Made by a program: the position numbers
In this document: one piece after another, positions 18,001-27,000 of the stretch
Layout: every line of letters starts with the position of its first letter
Numbering within the stretch: position 1 is the first letter of the stretch
Assembly: GCA_963665295.1 (NCBI GenBank)
Contig: OY762209.1
Location: forward strand, 800,001-864,000
Origin: Syntrophorhabdaceae bacterium
Lineage (GTDB): Bacteria; Desulfobacterota; Syntrophorhabdia; Syntrophorhabdales; Syntrophorhabdaceae
Reading direction: 5' to 3'
DNA: 64,000 bases

Positions 18001-21000
18001 CGACTCAGCCATGGAAAGAGCCAGCACTCGCCTTCTTTCATTGGGAGCCGCGATAGTTCACTCGTCTTTGCGACGACAGGCGACCACTCTTTTGTCAGAG
18101 GGGAAAGCAGTATTATCTCTGATGGTTCCATGCAGATAGCCACATCTAACGACGGCATAGACCTCAACGAGTTGTACTACCAAGAGTACCTTCAGCTCTT
18201 CAGGGAAGGGCTTCGACAGACCGAACAGATCGTAGACGTAACCACCGGCCAAGTGACCAGAAGAACATATATGTCCGGCAGATCGGACTTGACGGAAATC
18301 GCGATTCGCTCAACATCATTTCCTTTCGGGCTTCGTTCTTTGCCGCTTCACTGCATAACGGTTCAGGTGAGGGAAGGGGACGGGTAATAATATAGAGGCA
18401 CAGCGCTGCAGAAGTCCGTCCAGAGAAAGCAGATTGGTAACCAGCCGCTCAACCGGACCGCCGAAAAAGCCCGTTCCCTCATTGAACAGATGATACTTTT
18501 GGTCAATTCATGGGCTCATCTGCCTTGCTTGGTCTCTGCGTAAAAATCATTAGTTTTTTCCGCACCATTTTGGTGCCGTGCAAGTAGTCGATATCAAACC
18601 CTCTTCACAAGTGAAGGCATAGGGGTCAGCCCTTGACACGAGACAGATAGCTAACAACCACTTGAAAAACACAATGATTCAGGTCCTTTTACAGTAGATA
18701 TGTCCCGTGTCAAGGGCTGACCCCTATGCCTTTTCTCGTGATAGATCCTGCCTCCAGCATGACGGTGAGGCCGAGGATATCTCCTATGCCGGGCAGGGTG
18801 AGGAGGCCTTTGAATTCATCCCTGAGTTTCGCCTCTGCAAGGATCACCCCTTCGATGCGGTCTATCTCTTTGGTGAGTTCACGCATGATCGTAACGCTTG
18901 CGTTGACGGAGAGAAACAGATGTTCCTCCGGGAAGAGCTTTCTTACCTCAACCTCATCAAACTTCTTTACCACATCTCCCCTCACGATAATTCCCAAACT
19001 CCGGCTTATGATGTTCTTGATGCTCAGGATATGGGAAGATCGATGACGCACCAGATGCAACCGTTTTCTCAGGAGATCCCGGATGGGCCTCTCTTCCCTG
19101 GGATAAATATACCCTGTAGGCAATATCCCCAACCGTAAGAGATTGGCAAGCCAGAGGGCGCTTCTCTTATCGTCTATGTTCTTGAGTCCCTCATATTGTT
19201 TGATGGCTGCGGGATTGGCGAGACGCACCGTATATCCATTCTCCATGAGCCCATCCACGAACCAGTACCAGTTGAAGGTAGACTCCACCGCGATCGCGGA
19301 CACCTCTTTCCTGAACGGGTCCAATGTGCCAAGAACGGTCGGGAGATCATTATTCAGCTTCTTCTGAAAGATGACCTTATTTGCCTCGTCAACGATACCT
19401 AGTGTAGTGTCTCAGTAACGCCTTTACAGCGATTCACTTTTTCAAGTATCTCCTCGGCCTTCCTGGTCCATACGAAGGGTTTGGGGTCTTCGTTGTTGCA
19501 GCGAATATATTCTTCGATGGCGGTCACCAGTTCCTGAACGCTTTTGAAGATGCCGCGACGAATTCTCTTTCGTGTGATCTCCCCGAACCAGCGCTCCACC
19601 AGGTTAAGCCACGACGAGCTTGTGGGTGTAAAGTGGGGAACGAAACGGGGGTGTTTTTCGAGCCATGCTTTCACATTGGGGTGGGTATGAGTTCCGTAGT
19701 TGTCGAGAATCATATGGACATCGAGGCCCTTTGGCACCTGACGGTCTATGGTACGCAGGAACTTAAGAAATTCGGTATTTCTGTGGCGGGGATAGCAGGA
19801 GCCGTAACAGTTTAGTCCCCCTCACGGAGCCCTCGCCCCATTGCGATACAGTGCCGCCTGTGCCGTCATGGTATCCGACACCAGAAGCGTCTCCAGGAAC
19901 TTCCGTGGATCGTTCCCTTGCCTCATGGAAGTAATGATGAGACTCGGCAGGATACTGTGGGTCTTCAGTCCCGTTGCCGACCGCGTACCGAACATGAGCT
20001 TCCTCATGATCACCAGGAAGCGGATCGACTGTTCTGCCTGGTTGTTGGTAGGTGGTACTCCCGGATAGCGAAGGAACGTGAAGAGAAACTTCCGGTCTTT
20101 GCCGGTAAGGAAGGTACGGAGCCCTTCCGCCGGCTTATACTTGAGGGGCTTTGCACATATCTTCCCGAGGGTTGCTCTCAATTGCTTCTCGATGCGGGGA
20201 GCATCTCCCCACTCTCTCTTTCCCTTAAGAAGATCCCCGCCCGCGGCGCAGGCATCCGAGAAGAGCCTCCCGACCGCATCACAGAACGCCTCCGCTTTTG
20301 TATCTCTTGTCTCCATGAGGACGAGCTCCCGGGTCAACTCCCTGGCCCTGGTGATAAGGTGGGCAAGGCATGTCTGCCTTTCTCTCGCATGAACTCCGTT
20401 ATACGCGGCATAGCGGTCGGTGATGAGCACCCCGTCGAAGTTGTCCCCGAGAAGATGTTGAGCCACGTCTGTCGAGCGGTGCCGGTCGATATGGAAGAGG
20501 GCAAGATCGGCGTTTCCCGCATACCACGCGTAATGACCGGTCCCGTCGTTCCTCCATGATGTCTCATCGGCATGAACTATTTCCGAGGCGCGTATCTTCT
20601 CCCGGAGGTCTTCATAAAGAGGTGTCCCCCTTTTCGCCGCAGCCCTGTCAAACCCCACTGCCGAAGCAGGGACAAAGGCAAGGCCGAAGATCTCCCTCAT
20701 AACTTCCTCTACCTTTCGATAGCTCATACCTATCCTGTACCGCAAGTATAAGGCAACGGATTTCGTAACCGGTCCGATAGGAGCATTCGGAAGTTCGTCG
20801 GGAGCCGCCTTCACCACAGAACGCCCGCAACGGCTACAGTATGCTTCCTTATGCACATACCGTCTCACCACCGTGCGGGGTCTTATGACAATGTCTTCCT
20901 GCACATGCTCACGGATCCCTTCCCCGGGGACAAGAGGGCCTGACCCGCAATGGGGGCATCGATCGGGAGCGGGCACGTGAACCGTCGCATCCACGCGGGC

Positions 21001-24000: not shown

Positions 24001-27000
24001 GGTAAGGAAGGTACGGAGCCCTTCCGCCGGCTTATACTTGAGGGGCTTTGCACATATCTTCCCGAGGGTTGCTCTCAATTGCTTCTCGATGCGGGGAGCA
24101 TCTCCCCACTCTCTCTTTCCCTTAAGAAGATCCCCGCCCGCGGCGCAGGCATCCGAGAAGAGCCTCCCGACCGCATCACAGAACGCCTCCGCTTTTGTAT
24201 CTCTTGTCTCCATGAGGACGAGCTCCCGGGTCAACTCCCTGGCCCTGGTGATAAGGTGGGCAAGGCATGTCTGCCTTTCTCTCGCATGAACTCCGTTATA
24301 CGCGGCATAGCGGTCGGTGATGAGCACCCCGTCGAAGTTGTCCCCGAGAAGATGTTGAGCCACGTCTGTCGAGCGGTGCCGGTCGATATGGAAGAGGGCA
24401 AGATCGGCGTTTCCCGCATACCACGCGTAATGACCGGTCCCGTCGTTCCTCCATGATGTCTCATCGGCATGAACTATTTCCGAGGCGCGTATCTTCTCCC
24501 GGAGGTCTTCATAAAGAGGTGTCCCCCTTTTCGCCGCAGCCCTGTCAAACCCCACTGCCGAAGCAGGGACAAAGGCAAGGCCGAAGATCTCCCTCATAAC
24601 TTCCTCTACCTTTCGATAGCTCATACCTATCCTGTACCGCAAGTATAAGGCAACGGATTTCGTAACCGGTCCGATAGGAGCATTCGGAAGTTCGTCGGGA
24701 GCCGCCTTCACCACAGAACGCCCGCAACGGCTACAGTATGCTTCCTTATGCACATACCGTCTCACCACCGTGCGGGGTCTTATGACAATGTCTTCCTGCA
24801 CATGCTCACGGATCCCTTCCCCGGGGACAAGAGGGCCTGACCCGCAATGGGGGCATCGATCGGGAGCGGGCACGTGAACCGTCGCATCCACGCGGGCAGG
24901 CTCGGGCCTGAACCACCCGGGGTGTCCGACCGGAGCGCCGCGCTTCCTCCCTGCCAAAGAGACCGCATGCTCCGGTTTTTTGTTCGCCTTGAACTGTCTT
25001 CGATGCAATGCGGTATTCTTCGCCTTCAGTTCCTCGTTCTCCTTCTCTAAAAGACGGATACGCTTCATGGTGTCATCCAGCCTGTCCCGGAACACATCGA
25101 TAATCCGAAGATGCTCTTCGTACACCTCATGGGCCCGCTCATATTCTCCAAAGACCCATAGGGTGGAGAGAAAGTTAAGATGGGGGCAATTGTCCTTATA
25201 AAGACAATCGTAGCCGTATGGAGGATAGACCCTCTTCACTCGCTCTCCTGTTTCAGTATCTCCCAGTTGATCTTAGAAAGCTTCTGTATGAGAAGCCACA
25301 TCATCTTGTACCGCTTCGTCATCTCCTTCGCCTTCTCGGCAATCTGTTTTCTCACATACACGGTTACGGTCTTCCCCTTCACTTTTGTGGTAAGGGAGTG
25401 GCCCGTCATGGAAGGGGACTTGGCCACCGTCCCGATAAGGAAGAAATCCAGCTGTGCGACAATGTCCTCCTTAAGTCTCTCCCGCTGCCTTTTAAGAAGA
25501 TCGATTTGTTCCATTGAACCCTCCACATGAGTAGTAGTACTTCTATTATAATACCATCATGGAACAAGGAAATCAAAGGTTTTGTGGAAATTAGACATAA
25601 TATTTTGCTGGAAAAAGTTCCGGGGGGACTAAACTGTTACCAGGAGCCTAGGGATACATTGGGGGACGACCGTAAATAAGTAAATAACCCTTGACATGCC
25701 CCTCTCCGCCTGATACCATCACCTATGCCGCGCCATGCCCGTCTGGACGCCGAAGGTGTGCTCCACCATATAATTGTCCGTGGCATCGAGCGACGGTTAA
25801 TCTTCCGTGATAATAGTGACAGAGACCGTTTTGCGGAGCGGATGGGGAAGATATTCGACGACACCCACACTCCCTGTTACGCATGGGCGCTCCTCGGCAA
25901 TCACGCCCACCTTTTACTCAAAACAGGCGAGACTCCTCTCCATACAGTCATGGCCCGTCTTCTTACGGGTCATGCAGTCACCTTCAATAAAAAATATCGC
26001 CGCCATGGTCAACTCTTTCAGAATCGATACAAGTCGATTCTCTGCCAGGAAGACGCCTATCTCACCGAACTGGTCTTATATATTCATCTCAATCCCATAA
26101 GGGCAGGAATCATCAAGGACCTTGCGGGGCTTTCAACCTACCCTTACTCCGGTCATGCCGTCCTCATGGGCAAGGTCCTTCATCCATGGCAGGATATGGA
26201 CTACGTGCTCCGTTATTTCGGCCTGAAGACTGCACGAGAGGCATACCTTTCCTCGATGGAGAACCGACTTCTCAGAGGGAAGAGGCCTGACCTGGTAGGC
26301 GGCGGACTGATAAGAAGTTATGGTTCGTGGGCAGAGGTGAAAAAGACCGGTCAACGCGTAAAAGGCGATGAACGCATACTGGGAGACAGCGATTTTGTTC
26401 AGAGGATGCTTACCGGAGAACCCCGCCGCATCACGGCCGACCCGGAAGGTCCGACCCTCGATTATCTCGCCGGACGGGTCCGCGAGCTCTATGGCATTAC
26501 CCTCGAGAGTCTCGGCAGTGGAAGTCGCAGGTCTGCCGTGGTGGAAGCTCGAAGTCTCTGGGCTCATCTCCACGGACGATTTCCTGCGGCCCGGATCGCC
26601 CGATTTCTCAACATGACTCCGCCGGGGATAGGATACGCAGTTGAACGGGGGGAGAGAATTGCTCGTGAGAAGGGCTATGTACTATGAGTTATTTAGTTAT
26701 TTACGGTCGGTTGCCAAAGCCACCCCCAAAGCCACCCCACTCTATGACAGGGAGTCTCTGTAGGCATTTATCTTCCAGATCTCGCGGCTGGCCTCCTTTT
26801 GTATCAGACGGTTATAAGACTTCATGCTCCGAACGACTTTCATGCGCCGGCGGTACTCGGGCGCCTCTCGCCAGCGTTCCAGCAAATGGCTATCTTGAAA
26901 TATGATCTCTTTGAAAGCATTGGAAATGCAGCGTCTCTTATATTCCTCAATTATTTCTTCTGAGACGCCTTGTTCCGTCATCCACAATTTATCCCAGTTT

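Follow-up and report, generated by a model that had tools for sequence, protein, structure and literature searches.

An insertion sequence (IS) of the IS66 type probably stacks head to tail in the genome of a Syntrophorhabdaceae bacterium because its insertion is guided by a motif at a fixed distance and regenerates the target. The transposition machinery would read GTCCCN (on the IS gene strand) within a 28-bp core, GGGGGACGACCGTAAATAAGTAAATAAC, and insert about 21 nt outside this motif, always with the IRL toward it. The motif would remain untouched and the duplicated 8 bp would rebuild the target at an unchanged distance; copies would stack because each insertion spares the one and regenerates the other. 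A second hit would not be blocked, target immunity being apparently absent (four sites carry two to three copies), and about 11 insertion events on about 7 good sites would produce head-to-tail arrays with 8-bp target spacers, or with spacers of 7 or 9 bp where successive hits fell 1 nt apart. Two-copy units would also transpose via their outer ends, carrying foreign spacers into other arrays. The motif may be read by TnpC, by the DUF6788 protein or by both. What is combined here, targeted insertion and tandem accretion, is in both cases of a known kind.

A blastn search of the single 5,508,164-bp contig, with one unit as query, found 13 full copies of the 1940-bp element (1940/1940 bp, 98.87-100% identity) and three fragments of it, at contig positions 837276-837555, 894373-894652 and 2909907-2910159. 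The same search gave three distant matches at 70-73% that correspond to a second IS66-like lineage. All the copies start with GTAACAGTTTAG and finish with CTAAACTGTTAC, and their 18-bp terminal inverted repeats, GTAACAGTTTAGTCCCCC, begin with GTAA (tip GTAACAGTTTAG). Each unit had been described as holding a 92-aa and a 506-aa DDE_Tnp_IS66 ORF, and the profile matches agree: the larger ORF scored 116.7 bits against Pfam DDE_Tnp_IS66 (cut-off 23.1) and 233.7 bits against NCBIfam transpos_IS66 (NF033517; cut-off 180), and the smaller one is a conserved DUF6788 match, not TnpB_IS66. Upstream of tnpC there is one small ORF only and the accessory tnpA and tnpB are absent; since the sole small ORF is DUF6788, the element fits the single-tnpC subgroup and not the canonical three-ORF IS66. 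We take the ISBst12 group (so named in ISfinder), of the single-tnpC type, to be the closest subgroup by name. Both have DDE_Tnp_IS66 / NF033517, an 8-bp target duplication (TSD), GTAA inverted repeats and no tnpA or tnpB, the 8-bp TSD being typical of the IS66 family and the GTAA start its inverted repeat consensus. However, the present element is a member of a deep, separate and unnamed clade of the family, with a DUF6788 ORF and an oriented target motif at a fixed distance. The closest named elements on plasmids (ISH10 and ISNpe25 types) do not exceed 31% identity. TSDs of 8 bp were found at c13 (GCGTCTGT, on both sides of the copy), c9 (GGACGACC), c10 (CGGACGAC) and array 1 (CAGGAGCC), and also in the relatives' loci L002, L003, L004, L010 and L012.

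The survey's finding that ten of the 13 copies stand in four head-to-tail arrays (3+3+2+2) with spacers of 7-9 bp was reproduced by our search. Array 1 is located at 19804-25640 of the window, that is, the whole stretch of 64,000 nucleotides analyzed, in which positions are contig coordinates minus 800000. It contains three copies on the minus strand, c1 (19804-21743), c2 (21753-23692) and c3 (23701-25640). The first one (haplotype A, identical to c6 and c10) has its IRR tip at 19804, tnpC at 19822-21342, the DUF6788 ORF at 21339-21617 and its IRL tip at 21743. A 9-bp spacer, TGTATTCTT (21744-21752), which recurs at contig 1356381-1356389, flanking array 2, separates it from c2 (haplotype C, one difference from c5/c9/c12). 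Between c2 and c3 the spacer has 8 bp, CAGGAGCC (23693-23700), apparently a regenerated target, and the same 8 bp make up both outer flanks of the array. On the outer, IRR side this duplication (19796-19803) falls within a truncated IS630-like (DDE_3) element (19399-19803, minus strand), of which an intact copy was seen at about 27757-28900. On the motif side it occupies 25641-25648 and would be the landing site for further insertion. The order of insertion events that we infer makes c3 (haplotype B, identical to c11 and c13), the motif-proximal copy, the newest of the array. The core GGGGGACGACCGTAAATAAGTAAATAAC follows at 25661-25688 on the plus strand, with the box at 25662-25667 (GGGGAC, or GTCCCC when read on the strand of the IS genes), 21 nt from the IRL tip.

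Elsewhere in the contig, array 2 (1356390-1362224) has three copies with spacers of 8 and 7 bp, array 3 (2293559-2297445) two copies with a 7-bp spacer and array 4 (2655037-2658924) two copies with an 8-bp spacer. Three copies are solitary; the positions reported before for two of them, 846977 (c4) and 2910996, were right, and the third is corrected from 1817296 to 1817297. The window contains c4 (46977-48916, minus strand), which has a mosaic haplotype D and lacks an 8-bp match between its flanks; here the box has the variant form AGGGAC (gene strand, GTCCCT), at 48938-48943 on the plus strand and again 21 nt from the IRL tip.

A GTCCCN box was found exactly 21 nt outside the IRL at all seven loci of this genome, the three solitary copies included, and the 28-bp core was the same at six of the seven, c4 having a variant. 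We extended the comparison to 27 relatives' loci from 14 MAGs (45-70% amino acid identity), which with the seven own loci gave 34 IRL flanks from 15 genomes. A GWCCC box, counted when located 19-23 nt from the tip, was present at 30 of these flanks and at only one of 32 IRR control flanks; among the 34 it was missing at L003, L010, L020 and L029. In the relatives alone the box was 20-23 nt from the tip at 23/27 loci. At c13 and at L002, L004 and L012, all with their own 8-bp TSDs, the motif is outside the duplication, indicating that the IS inserted beside a pre-existing motif. One copy of the core, at contig 2372185, is unoccupied. In one MAG relative 3/7 copies are at sites without the motif, so that the motif is preferred but not strictly required.

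These distances bear on the possibility that it is the outer end of a copy already present that the transpososome recognises, inserting in the 8 bp next to it, the link to the motif being secondary. End-targeting as a principle is already known from IS30, IS911 and IS26, and also from IS21 (IR-targeting), and here 10/13 copies have a neighbouring copy 7-9 bp away, facing ends with such spacers are common in metagenomes (see below) and a resident IRL may help. Nevertheless, solitary copies and the single copies of 14 other MAGs keep the 21-nt distance with no resident copy near, a new copy was received at the motif-proximal end only, and, with about 11 events for about 7 good sites, multiple hits are expected without added attraction. 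In array 3, copy c9 lies 20 nt from the motif, c10 lies at 21 nt, and the perfect TSD of c10 takes one base, the last, from c9 and the other 7 from the flank; together the 7-bp spacer and the 9-bp flank make 2 x 8. The newcomer thus reached the canonical distance by extending 1 nt into the tip of the resident copy, and since c10 is at 21 nt though c9 is at 20 nt, the ruler counts from the motif and not from the resident end. We consider targeting of the resident end rather unlikely. The survey had proposed that arrays grow copy by copy at such ends. The first part stands, as the haplotypes and the TSD of c10 indicate transposition into the 8 bp beside a copy already in place, with the TSD becoming the spacer; the second is not supported, the external motif at 7/7 loci arguing against the resident end as the target. 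A terminal copy whose two flanks carry equal 8 bp, also reported before, does appear in all four arrays (for c10 the match requires counting the last C of the neighbouring copy's end) and in each of them this is the motif-proximal copy.

The alternative that arrays grew locally, through unequal crossing-over or through slippage between the 8-bp duplications during replication, has in its favour that doubling a TSD-IS-TSD unit through 8-bp repeats would give a spacer equal to the flank. It predicts identical copies, but neighbours differ at 8-12 of the 29 variable sites and their haplotypes are never equal (they differ at 6/6 junctions), while identical copies (c1=c6=c10, c3=c11=c13 and c5=c9=c12) are at different loci, megabases apart. 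This indicates that the arrays come from insertion and not from local duplication, which would in addition leave unexplained the 7+9 arithmetic, the foreign spacers, the motif distance of solitary copies and the clade-wide motif. We regard it as very improbable.

Motif-guided insertion appears to have been accompanied by movement of two-copy units as composites. The claim that spacers recur in different arrays was borne out, the pair A-TGTATTCT(T)-C being common to arrays 1 and 2 and the pair C-GGACGAC-A to arrays 2 and 3; so was the reshuffling of units between loci, with the c1-c2 dimer of array 1 bracketed by CAGGAGCC and identical copies at separate loci. A full and a partial copy are likewise bracketed, by TTCGATTG, at the relative's locus L001. 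These shared pairs and brackets support composite movement. The 9-bp spacer TGTATTCTT found in array 1 differs from the 8-bp form at its presumed source, array 2, and therefore requires an extra event. Both c7 and c4 are mosaic copies. At four of the seven loci (arrays 2 and 4, c4 and c8) the flank on the outer IRR side and that on the motif side do not share a matching 8 bp, which we assume to be due to later recombination or deletion, and reciprocal flank pairs were not found.

Wrong stacking of 2-kb repeats by the assembler could also generate arrays, and the copy number per array does rest on one assembly, the evidence from runs consisting of contigs. Yet SNPs and spacers tell every copy-spacer-copy combination apart, and junction unitigs with the right end-haplotype were recovered from runs of two studies: that of c2-CAGGAGCC-c3 was present in three of four public runs (X1, X3 and X4). 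The 8-bp TGTATTCT joint was found in contigs of run X1, the remaining depth implying the 9-bp form. The ratio of IS-body to junction depth in the public runs, about 8-11, agrees with 13 copies, and analogous junctions occur in 94 metagenome stretches. An artefact is hardly credible.

These stretches came from a metagenome scan for facing ends, and 74 of the 80 retrieved had spacers of 7-9 bp (6 bp, 1; 7 bp, 15; 8 bp, 49; 9 bp, 10; 10 bp, 2; 16, 20 and 21 bp, one each). Where the junction could be classified on both sides, 24/25 were head to tail. The wobble of the ruler in single insertions predicts 20% of 7-bp, 46% of 8-bp and 20% of 9-bp spacers, and the observed values were 19%, 61% and 12.5%. 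One 4.4-kb contig contained two TTATAAAG junctions whose surroundings were 1 SNP apart in 509 nt. No arrays were found in the five MAGs with relatives or in 400 other sampled genomes of the phylum. The metagenome junctions may well be arrays, which the data fit, yet free IS circles would look alike.

Circle junctions of IS3-, IS30- and IS256-type elements have spacers as long as the TSD, IS30, IS21 and IS911 form (IS)2 tandem dimers, and IS26 inserts beside IS26. The IRR-8bp-IRL junction could accordingly be a copy-out-paste-in intermediate (a circle junction or an (IS)2 dimer), with arrays arising by dimerisation or by recombination of circles into resident copies. As in those systems, IRR and IRL are abutted with a spacer of TSD length, copies accumulate side by side, and the 7-9 bp spread is typical of circle junctions; moreover, 41 of the 79 junction-bearing metagenome contigs measured 1900-2250 bp, about one IS unit plus the assembler overlap, and looked circular. 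However, dimerisation predicts identical copies and circle recombination chimaeras, whereas both copies at each junction of this genome are different, non-mosaic haplotypes that came in by separate insertions, an outside motif sets the site, and the junctions persist in the chromosome, unlike unstable intermediates. The flank arithmetic of array 3 fits staggered-cut insertion and not an unchanged flank, the spacers of motif-proximal junctions are the local flank, and no convincing junction promoter was seen by eye. The mobilome table of PMC5001619 gives 0 circle-junction reads for the IS66-family ISEc22, weak evidence coming from a distant relative; tandem IS26 pairs are mentioned in the same source. 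Altogether we consider an intermediate unlikely.

Insertion at a fixed distance from a motif has close parallels in Tn7, which is directed to attTn7 via TnsD and has target immunity, and in elements that accrete in tandem at a regenerated site. Shared features are the fixed recognition distance, the single orientation, the untouched recognition site and its repeated use, but the present element, a plain IS, has a single DDE protein and a 92-aa ORF and shows no sign of target immunity. Another parallel is that of the ISs that target REP sequences, IS1397, ISKpn1, IS621, ISPpu9/10 and ISPa11 (Tobes and Pareja, 2006; PMC1525189), which in the sections of that paper available to us belong to five families (IS3, IS110, IS4, IS256 and IS5), IS66 being unmentioned there. 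As described in those sections, they also home to short repeats tied to a Y1 (RAYT-type) transposase gene and, as here, nearly all sites are occupied, but the insertion point of our IS is about 21 nt beyond the motif and not within a palindrome, its repeat has about 9 copies and not hundreds, and the outcome is head-to-tail stacks. In the portions of the literature covered by our search we found no description of an oriented target motif at a fixed distance for IS66 elements.

The motif core is the terminus of RAYT-like Y1-transposase modules, with inverted core copies at both module ends. Beside array 1 the Y1_Tnp (IS200-like / RAYT-like) module spans 25649-26721 on the plus strand, with a 320-aa gene at 25725-26687, and the inverted core copy at its far end has no G-run. 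A second copy of this module, 98% identical, adjoins the solitary c8, and this genome has two full Y1 modules and two remnants. The transposase scored 34.8 bits against Y1_Tnp (cut-off 23) and 56 bits against NCBIfam REP_Tyr_transpos, under the cut-off of 80. The core gave 11 matches at up to two mismatches, about 9 of them related, so that REP-like abundance (more than 100 copies) is absent, and folding as DNA gave no stable hairpin in the type-1 core, with -3 to -4 kcal/mol for 87 nt. A short palindrome, GGGACGTCCC, forms the type-2 box. In six of the 15 loci examined in relatives the site is adjoined by a Y1_Tnp gene or by what is left of one, in most cases with a Bac_DnaA_C domain. The variant box beside c4 lies at the left end of a second family of Y1 modules. 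Five type-2 modules with the GGGACGTCC box are unoccupied, and the 6-mer alone is therefore insufficient for targeting. In the window, a type-2 left end is also joined to the 280-bp IRR-side fragment of the IS at 37276-37555 (minus strand).

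We have searched the genome, a single contig of 5,508,164 bp, by blastn with the 1940-bp unit at window positions 19804-21743 and found 13 full-length copies (98.87-100% identity), three fragments of the element and three distant matches at 70-73% that belong to a second IS66-like lineage. Four head-to-tail arrays account for ten of the 13 copies. In the orientation of the survey, array 1 (window 19804-25640) reads CAGGAGCC-c1-TGTATTCTT-c2-CAGGAGCC-c3-CAGGAGCC, array 2 AAAGAAAGT-c7-GGACGAC-c6-TGTATTCT-c5-TGTATTCT, array 3 GGACGACC-c9-GGACGAC-c10-CGGACGACC and array 4 CCACTGGC-c12-GACCGTAA-c11-GACCGTAA. 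Among the solitary copies, c13 has GCGTCTGT on both sides, and the flanks of c4 and c8 show no match between sides. The tandem arrays reported by the survey are confirmed by the blastn copies, the layout of the flanks and junction unitigs, with the copy number per array resting on the assembly. Specifically, unitigs across the c2-CAGGAGCC-c3 joint were present in three of four public runs (two studies, the runs taken as contigs). The 8-bp TGTATTCT joint was also present in the contigs of public runs, its 9-bp form being implied by depth, and the depth over the IS body was about 8-11 times that over the junctions. None of the pieces from these runs reached across an entire copy, and parts without cover were left out of the interpretation.

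In each unit the two genes, one for an IS66-type DDE transposase of 506 aa and one for a DUF6788 protein of 92 aa, lie on the minus strand of the window, so the end called right in the survey is IRL, the end upstream of the genes. The transposase models, the 8-bp target site duplication (TSD) and the GTAA termini of the IS66 family were all found, the three-ORF layout of the family is absent, and among named plasmid-borne relatives the closest reach at most 31% identity. The AlphaFold2 model of the DUF6788 protein (pLDDT 79.9) has a helix / beta-hairpin / helix layout. Foldseek gave no match for it in the PDB at E <= 0.001 (its best rows being coiled coils of the V-ATPase stalk and of prefoldin), and no function is assigned from the fold.

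The 13 copies vary at 29 positions, and the haplotypes are distributed in a characteristic way. Identical copies are found at different loci (haplotype A in c1, c6 and c10, haplotype B in c3, c11 and c13, haplotype C in c5, c9 and c12, from which c2 is one site away), while neighbours within an array are always of different haplotypes, 8-12 sites apart. The pattern favours separate insertions over local duplication or slippage, over dimers that the transposase makes of one element, and over stacking by the assembler. Unequal recombination or slippage as the origin of the arrays is accordingly very unlikely, and for the same reason we find it hardly credible that the arrays are an artefact of assembly. 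In all four arrays, the copy whose two 8-bp flanks are identical lies next to an external motif described below. Haplotype B has been seen only in this position or solitary, and is apparently the latest burst.

The clearest proof of insertion is array 3. Here the TSD of c9 is GGACGACC, and c10 has CGGACGAC on both sides when the final C of the c9 tip is included. The 7-bp spacer and the 9-bp flank thus make two 8-bp copies, which is the exact product of a staggered cut moved by one base. For the arrays together a consistent order of insertion events can be constructed. Two pairs of neighbours recur with their spacers, C-GGACGAC-A in arrays 3 and 2 and A-TGTATTCT(T)-C in arrays 2 and 1, the latter being bracketed in array 1 by CAGGAGCC. 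The spacer of this pair is 9 bp in array 1 versus 8 bp in array 2, its presumed source, a difference that the model proposed below leaves unexplained. A comparable case exists in a relative from another metagenome-assembled genome (MAG), L001, where a full copy and a partial older copy (5574-7985) are bracketed by their own 8-bp duplication TTCGATTG, indicating that they moved as a composite. The precursor arrangement is found at L004:5574-7959; in both loci the full copy lies inside the older one (92.6% identity), at position 1517. Flanks that match as a TSD are absent at four of the seven loci when the outer flank is compared with the motif-side flank. Later recombination is a plausible cause, judging from the mosaic sequences of c4 and c7; reciprocal flank pairs, a sign of inversion between copies, were not found among these four loci.

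All seven loci share a motif on the IRL side. At 24 nt from the tip the sequence is GACGACCGTAAATAAG, with c4 carrying a diverged variant, and by the rule on the gene strand GTCCCN is followed by 21 nt and then by the IRL tip. Since this motif is external to the TSD, and since the 21 nt in between vary by locus, it belongs to the target rather than to the IS. One copy, at 2372185, is unoccupied, and a check of the gene strand within the IS found no motif for self-insertion. DNA hairpins in the motif region are weak (-3 to -4 kcal/mol at the element's own sites). The motif is part of a 28-bp core, GGGGGACGACCGTAAATAAGTAAATAAC, that marks the left-hand end of a roughly 1.07-kb module encoding a 320-aa Y1_Tnp protein (window 25725-26687; 56 bits with the RAYT model, under the cut-off of 80). 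At the far end of the module there is an inverted copy of the core without the G-run. Two full modules and two remnants adjoin IS copies. The left flank of c13 is kept only in a genome of another genus (78% identity), where homology ends 2 bp past the TSD GCGTCTGT, so the motif module is itself inserted DNA. The right side there has no synteny, and we have rejected this genome as a true empty site for c13. A second family of Y1 modules, with the box GGGACGTCC, has at least five unoccupied copies and one occupied (by c4), so that the 6-mer alone is insufficient. Its members at window 48917-49950 and 60435-61452 are 95.6% identical to each other and have (GGGACATTA)n repeats at the left end, together with a palindromic GGGACGTCCC box that precedes a TTGACA promoter-like site.

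We fetched 34 loci whose transposases are 45-70% identical to that of the element; the labels of their MAGs include delta proteobacteria, Nitrospirota, Chlamydiales, Bacteroidales and Verrucomicrobiae. The small ORF is common to them (73% mean column identity in an alignment) and is found in the Verrucomicrobiae copies too; the IR tip GTAACAGTTTAG is likewise shared, and their TSDs enclose the IS alone. We compared 34 IRL flanks, 27 from relatives' loci (14 MAGs) and the seven own loci. In 30 of them a GWCCC box lies at a distance of 19-23 nt from the IRL tip (at 20 nt in nine, 21 nt in 18, 22 nt in one and 23 nt in two), the misses being L003, L010, L020 and L029, versus one of 32 control flanks on the side of IRR, the opposite end. 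The spacing rule holds over a range of about 45% to 100% identity between transposases, and in at least five different bacterial groups by MAG record titles. Fifteen relatives' loci were examined for the motif-side neighbor: in six it was a Y1_Tnp gene or remnant, in most cases carrying a Bac_DnaA_C domain. Two relatives showed peculiar ends. At L018:100-160 the distance to a head-to-tail neighbor is 38 bp, not 8 bp, and a ACGTCCCC box lies between the ends, 21 nt from the downstream IRL; this box seems to be repeated in tandem. At L014:4700-4751 the IRR tip and about 17 inner bases are duplicated in tandem, 29 bp apart.

The best explanation, which we consider probable, is insertion 21 nt from the box followed by stacking at the regenerated target. 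Such an insertion would leave the box unharmed, and the duplicated 8 bp would restore the target at an unchanged distance. With no immunity, the next insertion would enter the restored 8 bp, and repetition would give a head-to-tail stack with the newest copy beside the motif. Units of two copies would transpose via their outer ends and carry foreign spacers into other arrays. The model agrees with the place beside the motif of the copy with matching flanks, with the positions of haplotype B, with the distances of c9 and c10 in array 3 and with a tally of some 11 inferred events on about seven good sites. The survey had proposed the resident IS end as the target. Its separate insertions next to resident copies hold, given the haplotypes and the TSD of array 3, but the solitary copies, the relatives' loci and the shift at array 3 contradict the resident end as target, which is unlikely, although the end may keep a helper role. 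At array 3, c9 lies at 20 nt and c10 is back at 21 nt, so the motif, rather than the resident end, is the point from which the distance is counted. Some protein would read the box, with TnpC and the DUF6788 protein as candidates.

To see the junctions elsewhere, metagenome contigs were scanned for two facing tips 0-30 bp apart, which gave 94 stretches, 80 of them fetched. The spacer was 8 bp in 49, 7 bp in 15, 9 bp in ten, 10 bp in two and 6 bp in one, with single cases of 16, 20 and 21 bp. Independent draws with the observed wobble of the distance predict 20% 7-bp, 46% 8-bp and 20% 9-bp spacers, versus 19%, 61% and 12.5% observed. Of the 25 junctions classifiable on both sides, 24 were head to tail and one (L117) tail to tail. 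A metagenome contig of 4.4 kb contains two TTATAAAG junctions one unit apart with surroundings that differ by 1 SNP in 509 nt, and is a real array. The pattern was found in none of 400 sampled other genomes of the phylum and in none of five MAGs carrying relatives. About one unit long were 41 of the 79 junction-bearing metagenome contigs, which is ambiguous, being expected from an assembled stack of identical units and equally from free circles. Junctions produced by a circle or (IS)2 intermediate would agree with this length and with that of the spacers; in the source genome the neighbors are non-identical and non-mosaic and the flank arithmetic also contradicts it, making this origin quite improbable. 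IS30, IS21 and IS911 have (IS)2 forms whose abutted ends serve as donor. By analogy, the 8 +/- 1-bp IRR-IRL junction could tentatively be also the reactive form of this IS66 clade, the arrays acting as self-amplifying launch pads, a doubtful but possible addition to stacking at the box. It would account for dimers moving as units and for the many one-unit, circular-looking metagenome contigs. If true, it would give a first handle on the IS66-family transposition pathway and a natural DDE insertion system that is ruler-based, orientation-specific and immunity-free. By eye, no convincing promoter was found across the IRR-8bp-IRL junction.

Little is understood, to our knowledge, of how IS66-family elements choose their targets and by which pathway they transpose. 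Literature searched at the level of titles and abstracts gave no description of an IS66 target motif or of TSD-spaced IS66 arrays. The element works in like manner to REP-targeting ISs, which belong to five families in PMC1525189, IS66 being absent from the part of its text available; PMC2817692 describes RAYT genes with inverted REPs on either side. Apparently new features are a ruler-type target motif conserved in a deep clade of the IS66 family, the use of RAYT-like module termini as target by this clade, and TSD-spaced stacks as its regular outcome. As in Tn7-type targeting, insertion is oriented and at a fixed distance; Tn7-type systems have immunity, unlike this element. The clade offers a clean, testable rule (short box, 21-nt spacing, one orientation, no immunity) and, the rule being conserved, a defined substrate for the biochemistry of TnpC and the conserved DUF6788 protein. 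The terminus of one selfish element, the RAYT-like Y1 module, would offer another a safe place to land; tandem IS stacks would be accounted for without recombination, as an instance in nature of repeated insertion at a single site. The warning for genome assembly is that 2-kb stacks of such ISs are real and will collapse in short-read data.

An IS630-like element (DDE_3 + HTH) has about 16 near-identical copies genome-wide. The one at window 19399-19803 is truncated at position 405, exactly at the start of array 1, with an IS110-type (DEDD_Tnp_IS110) ORF fragment directly to its left (window 18710-19324) in an IS-rich patch, and an intact copy in the same orientation lies 8.4 kb away (window 27757-28900). 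Window 37122-37555 is a nest of mobile elements, where the left end of a second-family Y1 module directly adjoins an IRR-side fragment of the IS, 280 bp long; about 75 bp beyond this junction is an end of the second IS66-like lineage, with tip GTAACAGTTTAGTCCTCCACC. Beside array 4, at contig 2659430-2659600, a further IS66-like variant end (GTAACAGTTTAGTCCCCCAATG) is inserted 81 bp inside the end of the second lineage, so the genome contains no fewer than three related IS66-type lineages that share one 12-bp tip. Finally, window 56437-57226 is a tandem array of 114-bp units with 65-75% identity (family D7 of the repeat search).
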